Origin: Octopus sinensis
Lineage: Eukaryota
Direction of reading: 5' to 3'
Assembly: GCF_006345805.1 (NCBI RefSeq)
Contig: NW_021825800.1
Location: forward strand, 1 to 14,859
DNA length: 14,859 nt
Shown piece by piece: positions 3,614 to 14,443 of the stretch. The notes under the pieces are model-generated. The model saw nothing but the letters and a program-made list of their open reading frames with translations. It searched no databases and was not told the DNA's origin. Position 1 is the first letter of the stretch, and every line of letters begins with the position of its first letter. Made by a program: the position numbers and the translations under genes.

Positions 3614-4047
3614 GATGCAGGTATAACTGTGTGGTATGAAGTTTGCTTTCCAAACAAATGGTTCCAGGTTCAATTCCACTGTATGGCACTTTGAGCAAGT
3701 GTCTTCTACTGTAGTCTTGGACCATCCAAAGCCTTGTGAGTGGATCTGGTTGACAGAAGCTGAAAGAAGACTGTCATACATACATACATACATACATACG
3801 TACATACATATGTGTGTGTGTGTCTTTATGTCTGTGTTTACCCTTCCCCACCACGCAGTTTGGCAACCAGTGTTTGTGTATTTGTGATCTTGAACTTAGC
3901 AGTTCAGTAAAAGAAATCAACAAAATAAATATTAGGTTTAAAAAAGAAATCAATTACTGGAGTTGATTTGTTTGGCTAGAATTCTTCAAAGTTGTCCCCC
4001 AGCATGACTGCCATCTAATGACTGAGACAAGTAAAAGATAAATGATA
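3614..4047 (+). mobile_element. SINE family A, full-length, diverged
   Basis: GGTTCAATTCC B box, GCAAGTGTCTTCTAC, CCAAAGCCTTGTGAGTGGAT, internal (CATA)n, tail GACTGAGACAAGTAAAAGATAA. Confidence 0.9.
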
Positions 4048-4273: not shown

Positions 4274-4703
4274 TTACTCTTTTACTCTCTTTTACTTGTT
4301 TCAGTCATTGACTGTGGCCATGCTGGAGCACTGCATTTTAGTCAAGCAAATTGACTCCAGGACTTATTCTTTGTATGCCTAGTACTTATTCTATCGATCT
4401 CTTGTGCCGAACCACTAAATTACAGGGACATGAACACACCTGCATTGGTTGTCAAGCAATGGTGGGAGGACAAACACAGACATACAAACATATACACACG
4501 CACACACACATATATATATACATATATACGTACATATATACGACGGGCTTCTTTCAGTTTCTGTCTACCAAATCCACTCACAAGGCTTTGGTTGGCCCGA
4601 GGCTATAGTAGAAGACAGTTGCCCAAGGTGCCACGCAGTGGGACTGAACCTGGAACCATGAGGTTAGTAAGCAAGCTACTTACCACACAGCCACTCTTAT
4701 GCC
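4274..4703 (-). mobile_element. SINE family A, full-length
   Basis: Reverse complement aligns end to end with 12560-12977; tail of GTAAAAGA(GA) repeats. Confidence 0.93.
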
Positions 4704-5366
4704 TTATATGGAATAACAAAAATTTAAGTTATAATTATCATGTCTCCTACCCCATTATCAGAAGGAATAACTTTTGGTGATTGAAAATACTCAATTTATT
4801 TAAATATAAATCCTCATCGTGATAGAGGGCGACAGAATGGTGGGTCGGAGATCAATAGGGGAGACAGTAAAGAGAAGGCTTAAAAGTAAGAGTGAGATCA
4901 AAACAGCATTAGAAGTAAGAGAGGGTGTTAGTGGCATGATACATAGAAGAGCAAGGAAGAAAAGGAGAGAGAATGTAGAAGATGCCTTTTGACGTACTTT
5001 TACCCCATTATAAAATGGATTTATTATGTAAATAAAGAGATTAAAGTAAATAAGAAACAGACTTACTGAATAATGAATATCAGTCAACTGCTAAATGCAC
5101 AGTAATTTGAAGGCAAAAGAAAAATCCCGCTTTAAAATAAAGATAACTTCTTCAAAATGGCTGCAGGAAATGTAAATAAACTAATAGAGTGCCTCAGTTT
5201 TTTCTTGCGGTAAATTTTCAAAGAAGTATTGTTAGGTTGGGATTTTCATTACACTAGACATCATTATTATGGAAACTGGCTTACCTGGTTTTCCCTTTTT
5301 TACATGTTTGCTATGAAACAACTATGGCTACATTCAGTATATGAAAGTAAGAAAGTGTTTGAGTAC

Positions 5367-5995: not shown

Positions 5996-6015
5996 TATTA
6001 GTAATAATGATAATA

Positions 6016-6196
6016 AGGCAGTGAGCTGGCAGAAACACTAGCACACCAAGCGAAATGCCTAGTAGTATTTTGTCTGTCTTTACATTCTGAGTTCAAATTC
6101 TGCCAAGGTCGACTTTGCCTTTCATCCTTTCAGGGTTGATAAATTAAGTACCTCCTCCCCAAAAATTTCTGACCTTGTGCCTAGAAGAGAAAAGAA
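6016..6196 (+). mobile_element. SINE family B copy 1 (internal deletion)
   Basis: Head AGGCAGTGAGCTGGCAGAA, B box GAGTTCAAATTC, central GACTTTGCCTTTCATCCTTTCAGGGTTGATAAATTAAGTACC, tail CTTGTGCCTAGAAGAGAAAAG; flanked by 14-bp direct repeats. Confidence 0.92.
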
Positions 6197-6210
6197 TAAC
6201 AATGATAATA

Positions 6211-6677
6211 AGGCAGCAAGCTGGCAGAAATGTTAGCACACTGGGCGAAATGCTTAGTGATATTTCATCTGTCTTTGTGTTCTGAGTTCAAATTCTGCCG
6301 AGATCGACTTTGCCTTTTATCCTTTCAGGGTTAATAAATTAAATGCCTATTTCTTTATTACCCACAAGGGGCCAAACATAGAGGGGACAAACAAGGACAG
6401 ACATAGGTATTAAGTCGATTACATCGACCCCAGTGCGTAACTGGTGCTTAATTTATCGACCCCGAAAGGATGAAAGGCAAAGTCGACCTCGGCGGAATTT
6501 GAACTCACAACGTAACGGCAGATGAAATACCGCTAAGCATTTCGCCCGGTGTGCTAACATTTCTGCCAGCTCACCGCCTTAATAAATAAATTAAATACCA
6601 GTTGCATACTGGTGTCAATCTAATCGACTGGCCATCTCCTCAAACATTTCAGGCCTTGTGCCTAGAGTAGAAAAGCA
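6211..6677 (+). mobile_element. SINE family B copy 2, interrupted by inverted copy 3
   Basis: 5' part 6211-6344 and 3' part 6585-6677 are co-linear with the reverse complement of 13683-13895. Confidence 0.92.
6345..6579 (-). mobile_element. SINE family B copy 3 (different 3' tail), nested in copy 2
   Basis: Reverse complement starts AGGCGGTGAGCTGGCAGAA; tail ...GGCCCCTTGTGGGTAATAAAGAAATAGG. Target duplication AATAAATTAAAT at 6333-6344 and 6585-6596. More CpGs retained, so probably younger. Confidence 0.93.
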
Positions 6678-6744
6678 TAATAGTGATAATAAATTCACTC
6701 TTAGTTACACGTCCACAAATATCAAATTCAATGAGAATATGTTG

Positions 6745-8083: not shown

Positions 8084-8115
<32 letters not shown>

Positions 8116-8260
8116 TTAGCGTCCGTTTTCCATGCTAGCATGGGTTGGACGGTTCAACTGGGGTCTGGGGAGCCCGAAGGCTGCACCAGGCCAGTCAGAT
8201 CTGGCAGTGTTTCTACAGCTGGATGCCCTTCCTAACGCCAACCACTCCGAGAGTGTAGTG

Positions 8261-9740
8261 GGTGATTTTATGTGCCACCGACACAGGTGCCAGACGAGGC
8301 TGGCGAACGGCCACGCTCGGATGGTGTTTTTATGTGCCACCGCCACACACAGGTGCCAGACGAGGCTGGCAGACGGCCACGCTCAGATGGTTTTTTATGT
8401 GCCACCGACACAGGTGCCAGATGAGGCTGGCGGACGGCCACGATCGGATGGTGTTTGTTACGTCCCCAAAGCACGGAGGCCAGTCTATGCGGTACTGGCT
8501 ACGGCCACGTTCGGATGATTTTCTTGTGTGCCACGGCACTGGTACCACACAAAGATACAAATTCCATTTATGTTCATCTATTTTGATTTGTTTTGATTTG
8601 ATTTGATTTGATTTGATTTGATTTTCACTTGCCTCAACAGGTCTTCACAAGTGTCACAAGAAGGAAGGTATGCATAGGTGGACTGTCTACGTCGCCGGTC
8701 TTCGGATGGTGTCTTTATGTGCCACCGACACAGGTGCCAGATGTGGCTGGCGAACGGCCATGATCGGATGGTTTTCTTGTGTGCCACCGGTACTGGAACC
8801 ACAAAGATACAAATTCCATTGATGTTCATCTATTTTGATTTGGTTTGATTTCACTTGCCTCAACAGGTCTTCACAAGTGTCACGCGTGTCACACACTTGC
8901 CTCAACAGGTCTCCACAAGTGTCACACACTTGCCTCTGCCTCAACAGGTCTTCACAAAGTGTCACACACTTGCCTCTGCCTCAACAGGTCTTCACAAGTG
9001 TCATAAGAGGGAAGGTAAGCACAGGTGGACTGACTACGTCGCCGGGTCTTTGATGGTGGTGGTGTTTTTATGTGCCACCGACACAGGTGCCAGGTGAGGC
9101 TGGCGAACGGCCACGATCAGATGGTGTTTGTTGTGCCCACAGCACGGAGGCCAGTCGACGGCCCCACGTTCGGATGGTTTTCTTGTGTGCCACCGGTACT
9201 GGAACCACAAAGATACAAATTCCATTGATATTCATCTATTTTGATTTGGTTTGATTTTCACTTGCCTCAACAGGTCTTCACAAGGACACACTTGCCTCAA
9301 CAGGTCTCCACAAGTGTCACACACTTGCCTCTGCCTCAACAGGTCTTCACAAGTGTCACACACTTGCCTCAACAGGTCTTCACAAGTGTCATAAGAGGGA
9401 AGGTATGCACAGGTGGACTGACTACGTCGCCGGGTCTTCGGATGGTGTCTTTATGTGCCACCGGCACAGGTGCCAGATGAGGCTGGCGAACGGCCACGAT
9501 CGGATGGTGTGTGTTGTGCCCACAGCACGGAGGCCAGTCGATGCGGTACTGGTTACGCCACGTTTGGGTGGTGTGTGTTTCTTGTGTGCCACCGGCACTG
9601 GTACCACGAAGAATACAATTCCACTGATGTTCATCTATTTTGATTTGTTTTGATTTGATTTGATTTTCACTTGCCTCAACAGTCTTCATAAGTGTCACAA
9701 GAAGGAAGGTATGCACAGGACTGACTACGTCCCCGGTCGG
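8261..9740 (-). repeat. Hierarchical tandem-repeat array in the RTE 3' UTR
   Basis: A ~62-bp unit with core TGTGCCAC starts at 8271, 8333, 8398, 8527, 8718, 8780, 9071, 9186, 9454 and 9585. A ~30-42-bp unit starting CACTTGCCTC occurs at 8626, 8852, 8894, 8927, 8967, 9259, 9289, 9322, 9361 and 9668. Four (ATTTG)n tracts delimit super-units of 226, 407 and 409 bp. Confidence 0.93.
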
Positions 9741-9760
9741 GGCCACGGGTTATGGCCTGA

Positions 9761-11969
9761 CTAGTCTTGCCGGGTCTTCTCATGCCAGCATACTTCCATA
9801 GGTCTCGGTCTCTAGACATTTCCTTAGTGAGACCTAAAGTTCGAAGGTCGTGCTTCACCACCTCGTCCCAGGTTTTCCTGGGTCTACCTCTTCCACAGGT
9901 TCCCTCCACTGCTAGGGTGTAGCACTTTTGCACACAACTATCTTCAGCCTTTCTTGTCACATGACCATACCAGCGCAGCCGTCTCTCTTGCACGCCACAA
10001 CTGACGCTTCTTAGGTTCAACTTTTCTCTCAAGGAACTTACACTCTGACGATTATGAACCCTGACATTACACATCCATCGGAGCATACTGGCTTCATTTC
10101 TTGCGAGCTTACGCATATCCTCAGCAGTCACGGCCCATGTTTCACTACCATGTAGCATGGCTGTACGTACACATGCATCATACAGTCTGCCTTTTACTCT
10201 GAGCGAGAGGCCTTTTGTCACCAGCAGGGGTAAGAGCTCTCTAAACTTTGCCCAGGCTATTCTTACTCTAGCAGTTACATTTCAGCACACACCACCCACC
10301 CCCGCTACTGACTTGGTCTCCTAGGTAGCGGAAGCTATCAACTACTTCTAGTTTGTCTCCCTGGAACGTGGCAGAAGTTGGTCTCTGCATATTTCCAGTG
10401 TTTATTGCTCCTGAGCATTTGCCACAGACAAAAACTATTTTCCTAGTTAGCCTTCCTTTGACATTGCTGCACCTCTTATGTGTCCATAGCTTACACTTGG
10501 TGCATCTTATAGAGTTTCTACCTACACCTTTTTTACAGATCGAGCAGGGCCATCTACCTGAAGGCGTTTGTGATTGATCTACCTTCCTACTTATAGAACT
10601 TTGGTTTTGGCTAGGTTGATTCTAAGGCCCTTCGATTCTAATCCTTGTTTCCACACCTGAAACTTCTCCTCCAGTTCTGATAGTGACTCAGCAATTAGAG
10701 CAAGGTCATCAGCATAGAGGAGCTCCCAGGGGCAACCTGTCTTGAATTCCTCCGTTATTGCCTGGAGGACTATGATAAATAGGAGGGGACTGAGGACTGA
10801 ACCTTGGTGGCCCCAACCTCTACCCGGAATTCTTCACTGTACTCGTTGCCAACCCTCACCTTACTAGCAGCGTCTCTGTACATGGCTTGAACAGCTCTCA
10901 CCAACCATCTTCTATCCCTAGTTTCCTCATTGACCACCAGATAAGGGACCGGGGGACCTGTCAAAGGCTTTCTCCAAGTCACAAAAGCCAGGTACAAGGG
11001 CTTATCTTTGGCTAGGTATTTCTCCTGCAGCTGTCTTACCAGGAATATAGCATCAGTAGTACTTTTCCCTGGCACGAACCCAACTGCATATCATCTAAGG
11101 TAACTCTCTCTCTAATTAGTTGGCTACAACCCTCTCCGTAACCTTCATTACCTGATCCAGCAGCTTGATGCCCCTGTAGTTATTTGTCTCTAGGGCGTCG
11201 CCTTTACCTTTGTAGCAGTTGACTATTATGCTGCTACACCAGTCATTGGGTATGACCCCCTCGTGTATCACCTGGTTAACTATACGGGTGACTAAGCTAT
11301 AGCCGACACCACCAGATATTTTGAGCATCTCTGCAGTAATTCCTGATGGGCCTGGGGCTTTCCCTGTTTTCATGCTTCTAATTGCCTTATCTACTAAGGA
11401 ACTGTTAACTCGGATTGCTGGTCCCTCTGTTGGGTCGACATTCGGCAGACTCTCTTTATCCCATTCATTTTCCTCATTCAGCAACCTTTCATAGTGCGTC
11501 TCCAAGCTTCTCTCTTTGCATCCTCATTTAACGCAAGTGAACCATCCTCCATGCGAACACATTTCTCTCCTACCACGTCACGATTCTCTCTCACACACTG
11601 TCTTGCAACACGAAATACCTCAAGTCTTTCATCCTCACGACGCAGGACATGGCAAATTTTTCCTTATCTGCCTCCCCTCTGGCTAGATAGACCTGCTCCT
11701 GGCTTCCCTTCTGGCAGACTGATACACTTCCCTGCTACCACCGTTCTTCCAGGCCTTCCAAGCCTGTTTCTTTTGTCTAATAGCCCTGTCAACAATATTG
11801 TTCCACCACCACGTATTTTGGGTCTTAAGGGGACTTTGCACCAGCCACAGATCTGGTCAGCGGCTTTCAGCAGGTTGTCCCTCAGAAGCGTCCAGTTGTC
11901 TTCTACCCCATGCGTAGCTATACTCCCTTCCATTTCGTCTAAGGCTTCAAATAACATATCTCTAAATCT
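9761..11969 (-). pseudogene. Frameshifted RT ORF of the RTE element (linker, RT, C-terminus; APE endonuclease missing)
   Basis: ORF pieces 11116-11505, 10770-11075 and 9676-10221 join after correcting about a dozen 1-bp deletions. YADD is at 10705-10716. The probable native stop is TAG at 9763-9761 (..DRDLWKYA[V]HEKTRQD*). Confidence 0.92.
10415..10546 (-). other. PHD-type (C4HC3) zinc finger coding segment inside the RT
   Basis: Hand translation: CSIC-KKGVGRNSIR-CTKC-KLWT-H-KR-C-SNVKGRLTRKIVFV-CGKC, i.e. C-x2-C-x10-C-x2-C-x4-H-x2-C-x14-C-x2-C, in frame with the downstream LEVVDSFRYLG. Confidence 0.85.
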
Positions 11970-11971
11970 AA

Positions 11972-12451: not shown

Positions 12452-12559
12452 TTTTATATGTTCCACTTTTCCTTGCTTGCGTGCAGCAGATTTTTTTATG
12501 TTTGCATACCCTTCCTGTCACACAACCATACTTATTTCTAAGTAAAATATTTCCCCATA

Positions 12560-12977
12560 GGCGTAGGAGTGGCTGTGTGGTAAGTAGCTTGCTTACCAAC
12601 CACATGGTTCCGGGTTCAGTCCCACTGCGTGGCACCTTGGGCAAGTGTCTCCTACTATAGCCTCGGGCTGACCAAAGCCTTGTGAGTGGATTTGGTTGAG
12701 GGAAACTGAAAGAAGCCCGTCATATATATATATATATATATATGTATGTCTGTGTGTGTATATGTTTGTGTGTATGTGTTTGTCCCCACCCCCGAGCATC
12801 ACTTGACAACCGATGCTGGTGTGTTTACATCCCCCGTAACCTAGCGGTTTGGCAAAAGAGACCAATAGAATAAGTACTAGGCTTACAAAGAATAAGTTCT
12901 GGGGTCGATTTGCTCAACTAAAGGCAGTGCTCCAGCATGGCCACAGTCAAATGTCTGAAACAAGTAAAAGAAAAAAA
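12560..12977 (+). mobile_element. SINE family A, full-length (tRNA-derived head, CORE-like segment, internal microsatellite)
   Basis: A box TGGCTGTGTGG, B box GGTTCAGTCCC, then CCTTGGGCAAGT (CORE-SINE-like), central (TA)/(TG) tract and tail TGAAACAAGTAAAAG. Seven related copies lie in the window. Resembles octopus OR-type SINEs (from recall). Confidence 0.93.
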
Positions 12978-12978
12978 T

Positions 12979-13415
12979 AGGCAAAGAGGCTGAGCTTCTT
13001 TCAAGTGTTGGGCCTCGCAGAGGCAAAGTGGCTGAGTTCCTTAATGAGTTTTTGGCCTCACGGAGACATTGACTGAGACCTTAGGCATTATGTCGTGCTT
13101 CAGAAGATGACCCATCAAGCGAAGCAAAATCACAGTCATGGCAGGGACCGGTGTTACACAATTGGTACCCATGCTGGTGGCATGTAAAAGTACCCCCAGT
13201 ATCATACAAATGGCACCCATGCTGGTGACATGTAAAAGCATCCATCACACTTTTGGAGTGGTTGGCATTAGGAAGGGCATCCAGCTGTAGAAAACTATGC
13301 AAATCAGACTGGAGCCTGGCACAGCCTTCCAGTGTGCCAGCTTGGTCAAACCATCCAACCCATGCCAGCATGGACAACGGACGTTTAATGATGATGATGA
13401 TGATGATGATGATGA
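12979..13415 (+). mobile_element. Diverged RTE-related 3' fragment (ORF C-terminus remnant, short 3' UTR, (GAT)n tail)
   Basis: GGAGTGGTTGGCATTAGGAAGGGCATCCAGCTGTAGAAA...CCAACCCATGCCAGCATGGACAACGGACGTTTAATGATG aligns to the reverse complement of 8110-8250. 13054-13120 resembles the LGLT..DRDLW.YAV.EKT coding end. A ~42-bp tandem duplication lies at 12981-13065. Confidence 0.88.
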
Positions 13416-13454
13416 GATGGGTTTACACAAAATATTGCAAGTGACTGTAATATT

Positions 13455-13663
13455 GATTATAAATTTTGGCACAAAGCCAGCAAGTTTTAGGGAGAGGATA
13501 AGTCAATTACATCGACCCCAGTGTTCAACTGGTATTTATGTTATTCTGAAAGAATGCAAAGCAAAGTCAACCTTGATGGAATTTGAACTCAGAATGTAAA
13601 GACAGATGAAATACCGCTAAGCTTCTTGCCTGGTGTGCTAACAACTCTGCCCACTCGATGCCT
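13455..13663 (-). mobile_element. SINE family B copy 4, diverged
   Basis: GGAATTTGAACTCAGAATGTAAAGACAGATGAAATACCGCTAAGC and ATTACATCGACCCCAGTG match 6418-6540. Confidence 0.9.
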
Positions 13664-13682
13664 TACGAGTGAATATAATATT

Positions 13683-13895
13683 CTTTTCTACTCTAGGCAC
13701 AAGGCCCGAAATTTTGGGGGAGGGGGCCAATCGATTAGATTGACTCCAGTGTGCAACTGGTACTTAATTTATCAACCCTGAAAGGATGAAAGGCAAAGTT
13801 GACTTCAGTGGAATTTGAACTCAGAACGTAAAGTCAGACAAAATAACGCTAACTATATTGCCTGACATGCTAATGTTTCTGCCAGCTTGCTGCCT
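13683..13895 (-). mobile_element. SINE family B copy 5, full-length
   Basis: Reverse complement matches copy 2 from head to tail; flanked by TGAATATAATATT at 13670-13682 and 13902-13914. Confidence 0.93.
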
Positions 13896-13953
13896 TGCAA
13901 ATGAATATAATATTAATGCTTGTTTAAATCTATCACACAACATCAAAACAAGG

Positions 13954-14048: not shown

Positions 14049-14443
14049 CTTTTTTACTTGTGTCAATCATTTGATTGCGGCCATGCTGGAGCACTGCCTT
14101 AAAGAGTTTGTTTTAGTTGAAGAAATCAACCCCAGGACTTATTCTTTGTAAGCCTAGTACTTATTCTATCCATCTCTTTTGCTGAACTGCTAAGTTACAG
14201 GGACATAACCACATCAGCATCAGTTGTCAAGCAATGATGAGGGGTCAAACACAGACACACACAATATATATATATATGTATATATACAACGGGCTTCTTT
14301 TAGTTTCTGTGTACCAGATCCACTCACAAGGCTTTGGTTGGCCTGAGGCTATAGAAGAAGACTCTTGCCCAAGGTGCCATGCAGTGGGACTGAACCTGGA
14401 ACCATATGGTTGGGAAGCAAGTTTTTTTACCATGCAGCCTCAT
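14049..14443 (-). mobile_element. SINE family A, near full-length
   Basis: Co-linear with 4290-4695 (e.g. CCAGGACTTATTCTTTGTA, CCACTCACAAGGCTTTGGTTGGCC, GCAGTGGGACTGAACCTGGAACCAT). Confidence 0.92.

Follow-up and report, generated by a model that had tools for sequence, protein, structure and literature searches.

The 3' UTR of an RTE-type LINE in Octopus sinensis carries 13 copies of a 25-nt module that can be described as a short stem, a GGU loop, an A-rich linker and ACC. The reading that we favour, at roughly even odds, is that the module is a fold captured from a SINE body and then passively amplified, that its intact copies are pseudoknotted, and that a separate stem-loop at the end of the element serves as the handle for the reverse transcriptase (RT). 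The LINE would have acquired the module within a SINE-like cassette, where it formed the body and was followed by an RTE 5'-UTR block and an RTE 3' tail. Nested slippage duplications would have multiplied the module, and the extra copies would be by-products, presumably neutral ones. Intact copies would fold into a compact H-type pseudoknot of luteovirus size with the A-rich linker in the minor groove of stem 1 (S1), a placement that is established for luteovirus-type knots. Such a pseudoknot would help to pack or protect the RNA, and the terminal stem-loop would remain the RT handle.

The window, which is the whole 14,859-nt stretch analysed, is animal DNA rich in microsatellites. A LINE occupies its minus strand from about 11970 to 8084 (Table 1), with domain matches of the ORF to RVT_1 (E 2.5e-13) and to a PHD finger (E 5e-6). 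At E <= 1e-10 the C-terminal region of the LINE protein has 148 relatives; among those that carry a name, an RT protein of O. bimaculoides is nearest, with 89% identity across 46% of the query. RT similarity, the microsatellite tail and single-ORF relatives fit an assignment of the host to the RTE clade by sequence comparison; the label is used because of the (ATG)n tail and of a full-length PHD-RTE at locus L115, which is encoded in one 1143-aa frame and shares 50% identity with the window LINE in the common region. The available part of one account describes RTE 3' UTRs as extremely short (PMC2887409), in contrast to the 1.65 kb of the octopus LINE, and an octopus RTE with UTRs of ~600 nt appears in the accessible text of Petrosino 2022 (PMC9115989). 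An older RTE 3' end of another subfamily lies on the plus strand, with module copies at 13170-13194 and 13218-13242 (spacing 48 nt). Both subfamilies share one order: ORF end, module(s), 5'-UTR block, RTE tail.

Table 1. Coordinates of the LINE features, module copies and related elements (S1 and S2, stems 1 and 2; L1 and L3, loops 1 and 3).
Feature	Position	Strand	Description
PHD-type RTE LINE ORF	9761..11970	-	5'-truncated, frameshifted; RT fragment, PHD finger and C-terminal region
Stop codon of PHD-type RTE ORF	about 9763-9761	-	end frame
Expanded 3' UTR, about 1.65 kb	8113..9760	-	four macro-repeats with minisatellites, 5-nt repeats and ~62-nt units
Copy A1	9570..9599	-	S1 4 bp; L3 longer, at 11 nt; marginal
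Decayed copy C1	9506..9529	-	loop GGU lost
Copy B1	9444..9468	-	strict: S1 5 bp, L1 1 nt, S2 4 bp, L3 6 nt, all Watson-Crick
Copy A2	9176..9200	-	mismatches break S1
Decayed copy C2	9123..9146	-	loop GGU lost
Copy B2	9061..9085	-	strict fit; S1 with one U-G
Copy A3	8770..8794	-	mismatches break S1
Copy B3	8708..8732	-	strict fit; S1 with one U-G
Copy A4	8517..8540	-	one loop G deleted; S2 broken
Decayed copy C3	8450..8475	-	CG kept at both S1 ends
Copy B4	8389..8412	-	S2 3 bp only
Copy B5	8323..8347	-	S1 insertion; 4+4 bp; marginal
Copy B6, last, directly before RTE 5'-UTR block	8261..8285	-	strict; S1 with one U-G
RTE 5'-UTR element homologue, GGAAGGGCATCC core, displaced to 3' end	8200..8241	-	93% over 42 nt to G001:C269
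Terminal nested stem-loop of RTE 3' tail	8115..8151	-	covariation in 11 tails
(ATG)n microsatellite tail	8084..8115	-	tandem ATG repeats
Older RTE 3' end, other subfamily	13010..13419	+	ORF end, two motif copies, 5'-UTR block, terminal stem-loop, (ATG)n
RTE 5'-UTR block in older element	13262-13300	+	same order as young LINE
RTE 5'-UTR blocks in L115	4403-4350 and 596-543	-	upstream of ORF start codons

How many copies of the module are present, and how many of them could form a knot? The sequence-only reading had described about ten tandem copies of an H-type pseudoknot in 8261-9605. The strings that it quoted are exact in letters and position (TGTGC-C-GGTG-GCACA-TAAAGA-CACC at 9468-9444 on the minus strand and CATGC-T-GGTG-GCATG-TAAAAG-TACC at 13170 on the plus strand), and the weaker second copy that it saw in the older element does exist, starting at 13218; by eye, S2 of that copy has four pairs, one of them G-U, and S1 contains a mismatch. 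Ten copies with a GGTGGCA core are likewise found, and three decayed ones (9529, 9146 and 8475) bring the UTR total to 13. To call them ten tandem pseudoknots is an overstatement, however, as the H-type geometry is strictly fitted only by a minority, namely the four copies at 9468, 9085, 8732 and 8285; one further copy has a 3-bp S2, two are marginal and six are broken (5/13 intact). The tandem arrangement holds for the head-to-tail 62-nt array at 8475-8261, whereas the other copies are distributed over macro-repeats of 350-400 nt. A covariance model built from 15 copies (13 from the UTR, two from the older element) recovers all 15 and none further in the window. What the units of the two subfamilies have in common is the motif, the rest of the unit differing in sequence. 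Young B units (the 8476-8420 region and others) carry an extra 5-bp hairpin, GCCAG/CTGGC, just 5' of the motif, where the older element has a different sequence.

The strict descriptor (S1 of 5 bp, L1 of 1-2 nt, S2 of 4 bp, an A-rich L3, no more than one G-U) is post hoc, having been chosen after the motif was seen. It fits four times in the UTR, compared with a mean of 0.075 (maximum 1) in 200 dinucleotide shuffles. Because the copies are duplicates, the fair chance figure is that for one 385-nt unit, which with the same post hoc descriptor is P = 0.017 (1000 shuffles). Among the matches listed, those outside the UTR are mostly TA repeats. In its compact H-type size the predicted octopus fold is similar to the luteoviral P1-P2 frameshift pseudoknots (BWYV, PEMV-1, PLRV and ScYLV). 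Luteoviral knots have an A-rich loop over S1, a C in L1 and an L1 of 2 nt, against 1 nt in the octopus motif. They are situated in a coding overlap after a slippery site, whereas over 160 nt separate the ORF stop from the first octopus copy. Stems of 4-5 bp (S1) and 3 bp (S2) are given for them in the available part of PMC3835772.

Covariation was assessed in 15 related, dead copies (14 distinct), a set of low power in which S1 is 91.2% and S2 77.8% paired. Two-sided changes affect two of nine pairs, both in S1 (U-A/C-G and G-C/A-U), and 269 of 500 shuffles reach that count; the four S2 pairs show none among the 14 distinct copies in the window, again with low power. The double pair-preserving change to which the sequence-only reading had pointed is present, but it is of the CpG type. 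In the copy at 8475 each end of S1 still reads CG, which is likely the ancestral state, so that the young TG/CA and the old CA/TG are both products of CpG decay, as the reservation that came with the original proposal allowed. Outside CpG positions there is no covariation, both S1 changes being at CpG sites and S2 having none, and S2 is no better conserved than its surroundings (columns at 0.83-0.87 compared with 0.78-0.84 in the flanks). The available data, at low power, speak against selection on the knot.

The energetics are those of a borderline structure. Nested folding of the whole UTR assigns S1 a probability of 0.00-0.56, with the loop G often paired elsewhere. For the strict copies with flanks, the break-even pseudoknot loop penalty is 6.1, 4.5, 6.8 and 5.8 kcal/mol, and for non-strict copies it is 3.9 kcal/mol or less. 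Usual loop penalties are ~7-10 kcal/mol before coaxial stacking and triples are counted, and the knot wins only below 4.5-6.8 kcal/mol, so folding is marginal. A pseudoknot in the intact copies is a plausible prediction. When the Rfam covariance models were run over 8116-9800, only two Histone3 matches were returned, with E about 3 and far below the gathering score. Known self-cleaving ribozymes were rejected as candidates, as the Rfam search of the UTR gave nothing relevant. A relaxed pseudoknot descriptor applied to 80 loci and the window had one match outside the window (L031:1650-1700, plus strand), which consists of a hairpin plus a UUAAA-CC segment.

Where might the module have come from? 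It is followed in both subfamilies by a homologue of an element that occurs twice in L115, at 35 nt upstream of the ATG that opens a 1070-aa PHD-RTE ORF and at 26 nt upstream of the ATG that opens a second endonuclease ORF. These positions identify the block as a 5'-UTR element, and the end of the octopus LINE is thus made up of module(s), an RTE 5' block and an RTE 3' tail. A pattern search found the block in 21 genome contigs, where by context 11 matches are animal-type repeats and 10 are apparent chance matches in bacterial genes. In the short elements L085, L090, L096 and L103 it is joined to an RTE tail; L095 and L098 have it behind a tRNA-like head, with another 3' end joined to it in L098. 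The metagenome loci contain 24 occurrences, most of them close to where a short dispersed element starts. The one match in viral_contigs was judged to be due to chance.

The succession of a body, an RTE 5'-UTR piece, an RTE 3' tail and a microsatellite is that of bipartite RTE-derived SINEs and non-autonomous RTEs (HaSE1, Bov-tA, AfroSINE; Kojima 2018). SINEs of the type tRNA-body-RTE5'-RTE3', such as HaSE1, are described in the accessible portion of that paper (PMC5786205), and the HaSE1 body is called unrelated to known sequences in the available text of PMC3272025. Unlike bipartite SINEs, the octopus cassette follows the ORF of a LINE of autonomous type, and the 5'-UTR block is found at the 3' end of that LINE. 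We infer that a SINE-like 3' cassette was captured by the LINE via template switching. The cassette with its 5'-UTR block is new here, and was absent from the earlier account, as was the likeness to Deu/Nin domains discussed below.

The block may have a fold of its own. Its loop GGGCA has a complement of at least four pairs shortly downstream in 15/22 animal-type variants, at an offset of 5-8 in 13 of these 15; such a complement is also seen in 5/9 bacterial chance matches, and covariation affects only 1/10 pairs. On sequence grounds, a pseudoknot may be formed by the RTE 5'-UTR block at 26-35 nt ahead of the start codon, a candidate translation-initiation element. The contig with L115 (L115:1-4593, G001:C269) carries a full-length PHD-RTE and then the start of a second RTE, head-to-tail, in a bacterial genome assembly, and is probably eukaryotic contamination. 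Animal-type SINEs or bipartite RTEs are found in further contigs of prokaryote assemblies (L083, L087-L089, L095, L097, L098, L101, L085, L090 and L096), several at ends; contamination or chimeric joins are the probable cause.

To what is the module itself related? A short CG-closed stem, a G-rich loop end, a UAAA linker and (A/U)CC are shared with the Deu/Nin-DC domain, which occurs as tandem units in BivaMD-SINE1, EbuSINE2 and gastropod Nin SINEs (PMC4824008, PMC4758252, PMC5786205). In HaSE1 and EbuSINE2 this domain also precedes an RTE 5'-UTR piece. The comparison was made by eye with published consensus sequences, for a short and self-complementary motif and with the likeness deliberately sought. 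Read in this way, the Deu/Nin core comprises a tandem pair of units, each having a stem with UAAA behind it. In BivaMD-SINE1 (CrVi; PMC4824008) the second unit, with loop GGU and downstream ACC, agrees with copy B6 in about 23/27 columns by eye, eight loop bases being gapped (two gaps). S1 of the first unit reads GUCUU/GAGAC in gastropod Nin SINEs, CUCUU/GAGAG in Sgi_1, GUGUU/GGCAC in HaSE1 and UUCUU/GGGAA in BivaMD TeGr; the last three represent double changes, none of the CpG type. In 12 of 14 consensus sequences the first-unit loop GGA(U) has a (G)UCY complement downstream, the exceptions being Lottia, which lacks it, and CrVi, where the reading is ambiguous. Among the published Deu/Nin units S2 is near-invariant, and because it hardly varies in the first unit this complement alone proves nothing. 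Furthermore, in the available part of PMC4758252 the second unit, to which the motif bears the closest likeness, lacks the loop GG in Lsa_3, Nla_1-3, Pan_1-3, Sgi_1 and Nla_Nin and keeps the downstream AAAGA(A/U)CC, so this stretch may be conserved for another reason.

Compared with Deu/Nin domains, the octopus element has a single minimal unit of one type, whose variable loop is cut to about 5 nt and which is repeated 13 times, and it sits in a LINE 3' UTR behind the ORF end, with no tRNA head. Deu/Nin-DC is defined by a ~70-bp core with both units and a tRNA or 5S head, and the octopus element falls outside this definition; the window has no tRNA head and no full Deu domain. A Nin-unit pattern matched none of 101 loci and nothing in viral_contigs, and a Deu-unit pattern matched none of five genomes. 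The searched supplements of PMC9115989, PMC11481361 and PMC5804259, in the parts available, contain no element sequences. In the accessible text of the O. vulgaris annotation, five recent tRNA-Deu insertions cover 26,935 bp (PMC13282606). SINEs are shorter than this length implies, and LINEs that carry a Deu-like tail would be compatible with it; the observation is circumstantial.

The role of the Deu/Nin domain is stated to be unknown (PMC4824008, in the part available, and PMC11481361), and greater RNA stability is among the roles proposed for SINE central domains in the available text of PMC4824008. A search of the openly accessible literature on pseudoknots in RTE UTRs or SINE central domains and on octopus RTEs and SINEs gave no account of the octopus repeat or of a Deu/Nin pseudoknot; in the main SINE-domain papers the word 'pseudoknot' occurs zero times. 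The RTE tail at 8151-8115, several mollusc SINE tails, Deu/Nin units and the octopus motif all have a CG-closed stem with (U)UAAA behind it, which is possibly a common retroposon RNA signature. A wider and much more tentative proposal can be made: the Deu/Nin domain, the function of which has been open since 2006, would consist of tandem compact H-type pseudoknots with an A-minor loop, and the octopus RTE would have taken up a minimal working version of it along with an RTE 5'-UTR block, multiplying what it had captured. The CG-stem/UAAA fold would then perhaps be a common signal for RNP assembly or RNA protection in SINE bodies, RTE 5' UTRs and LINE tails.

The same evidence can be read with a simpler structure, which we regard as a serious possibility yet clearly less probable than the captured pseudoknot. 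The module would be a plain hairpin with a 6-bp stem and a GGU triloop, followed by a UAAA..ACC stretch that matters for its sequence, either as a protein site or as the relic of a retroposon 3'-end hairpin; the complement between loop and ACC would be incidental. The isolated hairpin has an energy of -7.2 or -4.5 kcal/mol, S2 shows no covariation, the RTE tail and several SINE tails likewise terminate in a CG-closed stem with UAAA, and the Nin second units without loop GG retain the downstream stretch. All of this is as expected for a hairpin, whereas the chance of a strict fit per unit (0.017) and the loop-downstream complement of the first Nin unit in 12/14 consensus sequences favour the knot.

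How did the copies multiply? The UTR contains four macro-repeats (about 9735-9440, 9439-9052, 9051-8704 and 8703-8257) that are 86-97% alike, and each has minisatellites of 33-40 nt, 5-nt repeats and 2-5 copies of the ~62-nt unit. It is likely that the copies arose via nested duplications, of 62 nt and of 350-400 nt. Because the minisatellites and 5-nt repeats are also present in each macro-repeat, duplication was not motif-specific. When the UTR end was translated in antisense, 11 proteins were matched, including nine from O. vulgaris and one from O. bimaculoides. The O. vulgaris protein P0121, which is 94% identical to the end of the window across 67 residues, has three units and P0122 has five in a row; with three and five units in sister copies, copy number varies within the family. 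The family master already has about three copies, and for that reason some selection on copy number is possible. The octopus hypothetical proteins P0121-P0131 are antisense translations of the LINE UTR and probably annotation artefacts.

Which structure does the RT recognise? The motif is absent from RTE relatives, which have in common a covarying terminal stem-loop instead, and this weighs against the proposal that it is an RT-recruitment module. The relatives were 79 loci from metagenome contigs (from the best 80 of at least 512 matches), many of them close kin and hence not independent. The motif model was run over these and 18 other loci, after 20 had been excluded as bacterial chance matches or overlaps, and none of the 97 gave a match below E 2.3; seven matches outside the window at E 2.3-4.8 were taken as noise. 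A microsatellite tail begins within 200 nt of the protein match in 44 of the 62 relatives that have at least 150 nt after it. The window tail was aligned with 10 others, nine of them from other loci, that were picked by sequence pattern. In this alignment the terminal stem-loop is 91.5% paired and has two-sided changes, some of the CpG type and some not, in 6/10 pairs; its covariation score was matched by 0/500 shuffles. The motif is not beside the terminal repeat: its last copy ends about 145 nt before (ATG)n, and the place is taken by the other stem-loop. A search of viral_contigs gave no match for the RT or the motif.

Judged from these alignments, the stem-loop at 8151-8115 is likely the RT-recognition element of the LINE, and the repeated motif is probably not the RT handle. 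The stem-loop fits the class of stringent LINE 3' stem-loops (UnaL2, ZfL2, CR1/L2 tails; PMC4824008) in being terminal, common to partner SINEs and covarying, unlike the repeated motif, which is internal and lineage-limited. For the motif, a role as an RNA-stability or RNP module is possible.

An array of pseudoknots under selection, as first proposed for this UTR, would act like the tobamoviruses' upstream pseudoknot domain (UPD), more copies making the RNA more stable or better translated, or loading more RT. Both systems have several small pseudoknots, predicted ones in the octopus, in a 3' UTR that lacks poly(A) and upstream of a terminal structure, here the recognition stem-loop. The TMV UPD binds eEF1A according to the available text of PMC13564737, and RTE RNAs are described, in the portion of the literature available, as ending in microsatellites and not in poly(A). 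More than one copy is present in both subfamilies (2 and 13), and sister copies have three to five or more. However, the knots of the tobamovirus UPD are adjacent, intact and conserved, whereas the octopus copies are 60-400 nt apart, mostly not intact (5/13) and absent from relatives; unrelated minisatellites were amplified with them, and S2 is conserved no better than its flanks. We therefore consider selection for the array unlikely. That the module has no structure at all, being a chance complementary 25-mer of the octopus lineage that was amplified with its surroundings and resembles Deu/Nin by coincidence, is more doubtful still: every two-sided change is of the CpG type, two of the four ways in which two facing CpGs decay give Watson-Crick pairs, the descriptor is post hoc and six copies are broken, but the motif is the very portion of the unit that two subfamilies share while the remainder differs, and it matches a bivalve Deu unit by eye at 23/27 columns.

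The window contains other repeats besides the LINEs. Copies of a dispersed repeat at 12559-12980 (minus strand), 4337-4704, 3627-3837 and 14112-14421 are 78-88% alike and have an internal TA/TG tract; we take this family to be, probably, a tRNA-derived octopus SINE. A third dispersed family is found in both orientations at 6011-6682 and 13499-13896, with nested inverted pairs at 6011-6584.

Taken by itself, as one repeat within a LINE copy that is dead, the module is of minor importance. RTE UTRs are being engineered for gene insertion (PMC13708176), and for this reason it is useful in practice to tell the RT handle from passenger folds. The 25-nt unit would also provide a minimal, testable model for the Deu/Nin domain. 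If capture from a SINE body is the correct reading, SINE-type modules may flow back into the 3' UTR of a LINE, the reverse of the usual direction from LINE to SINE, and they would do so in an RTE family of the kind reported to be active in the octopus brain.
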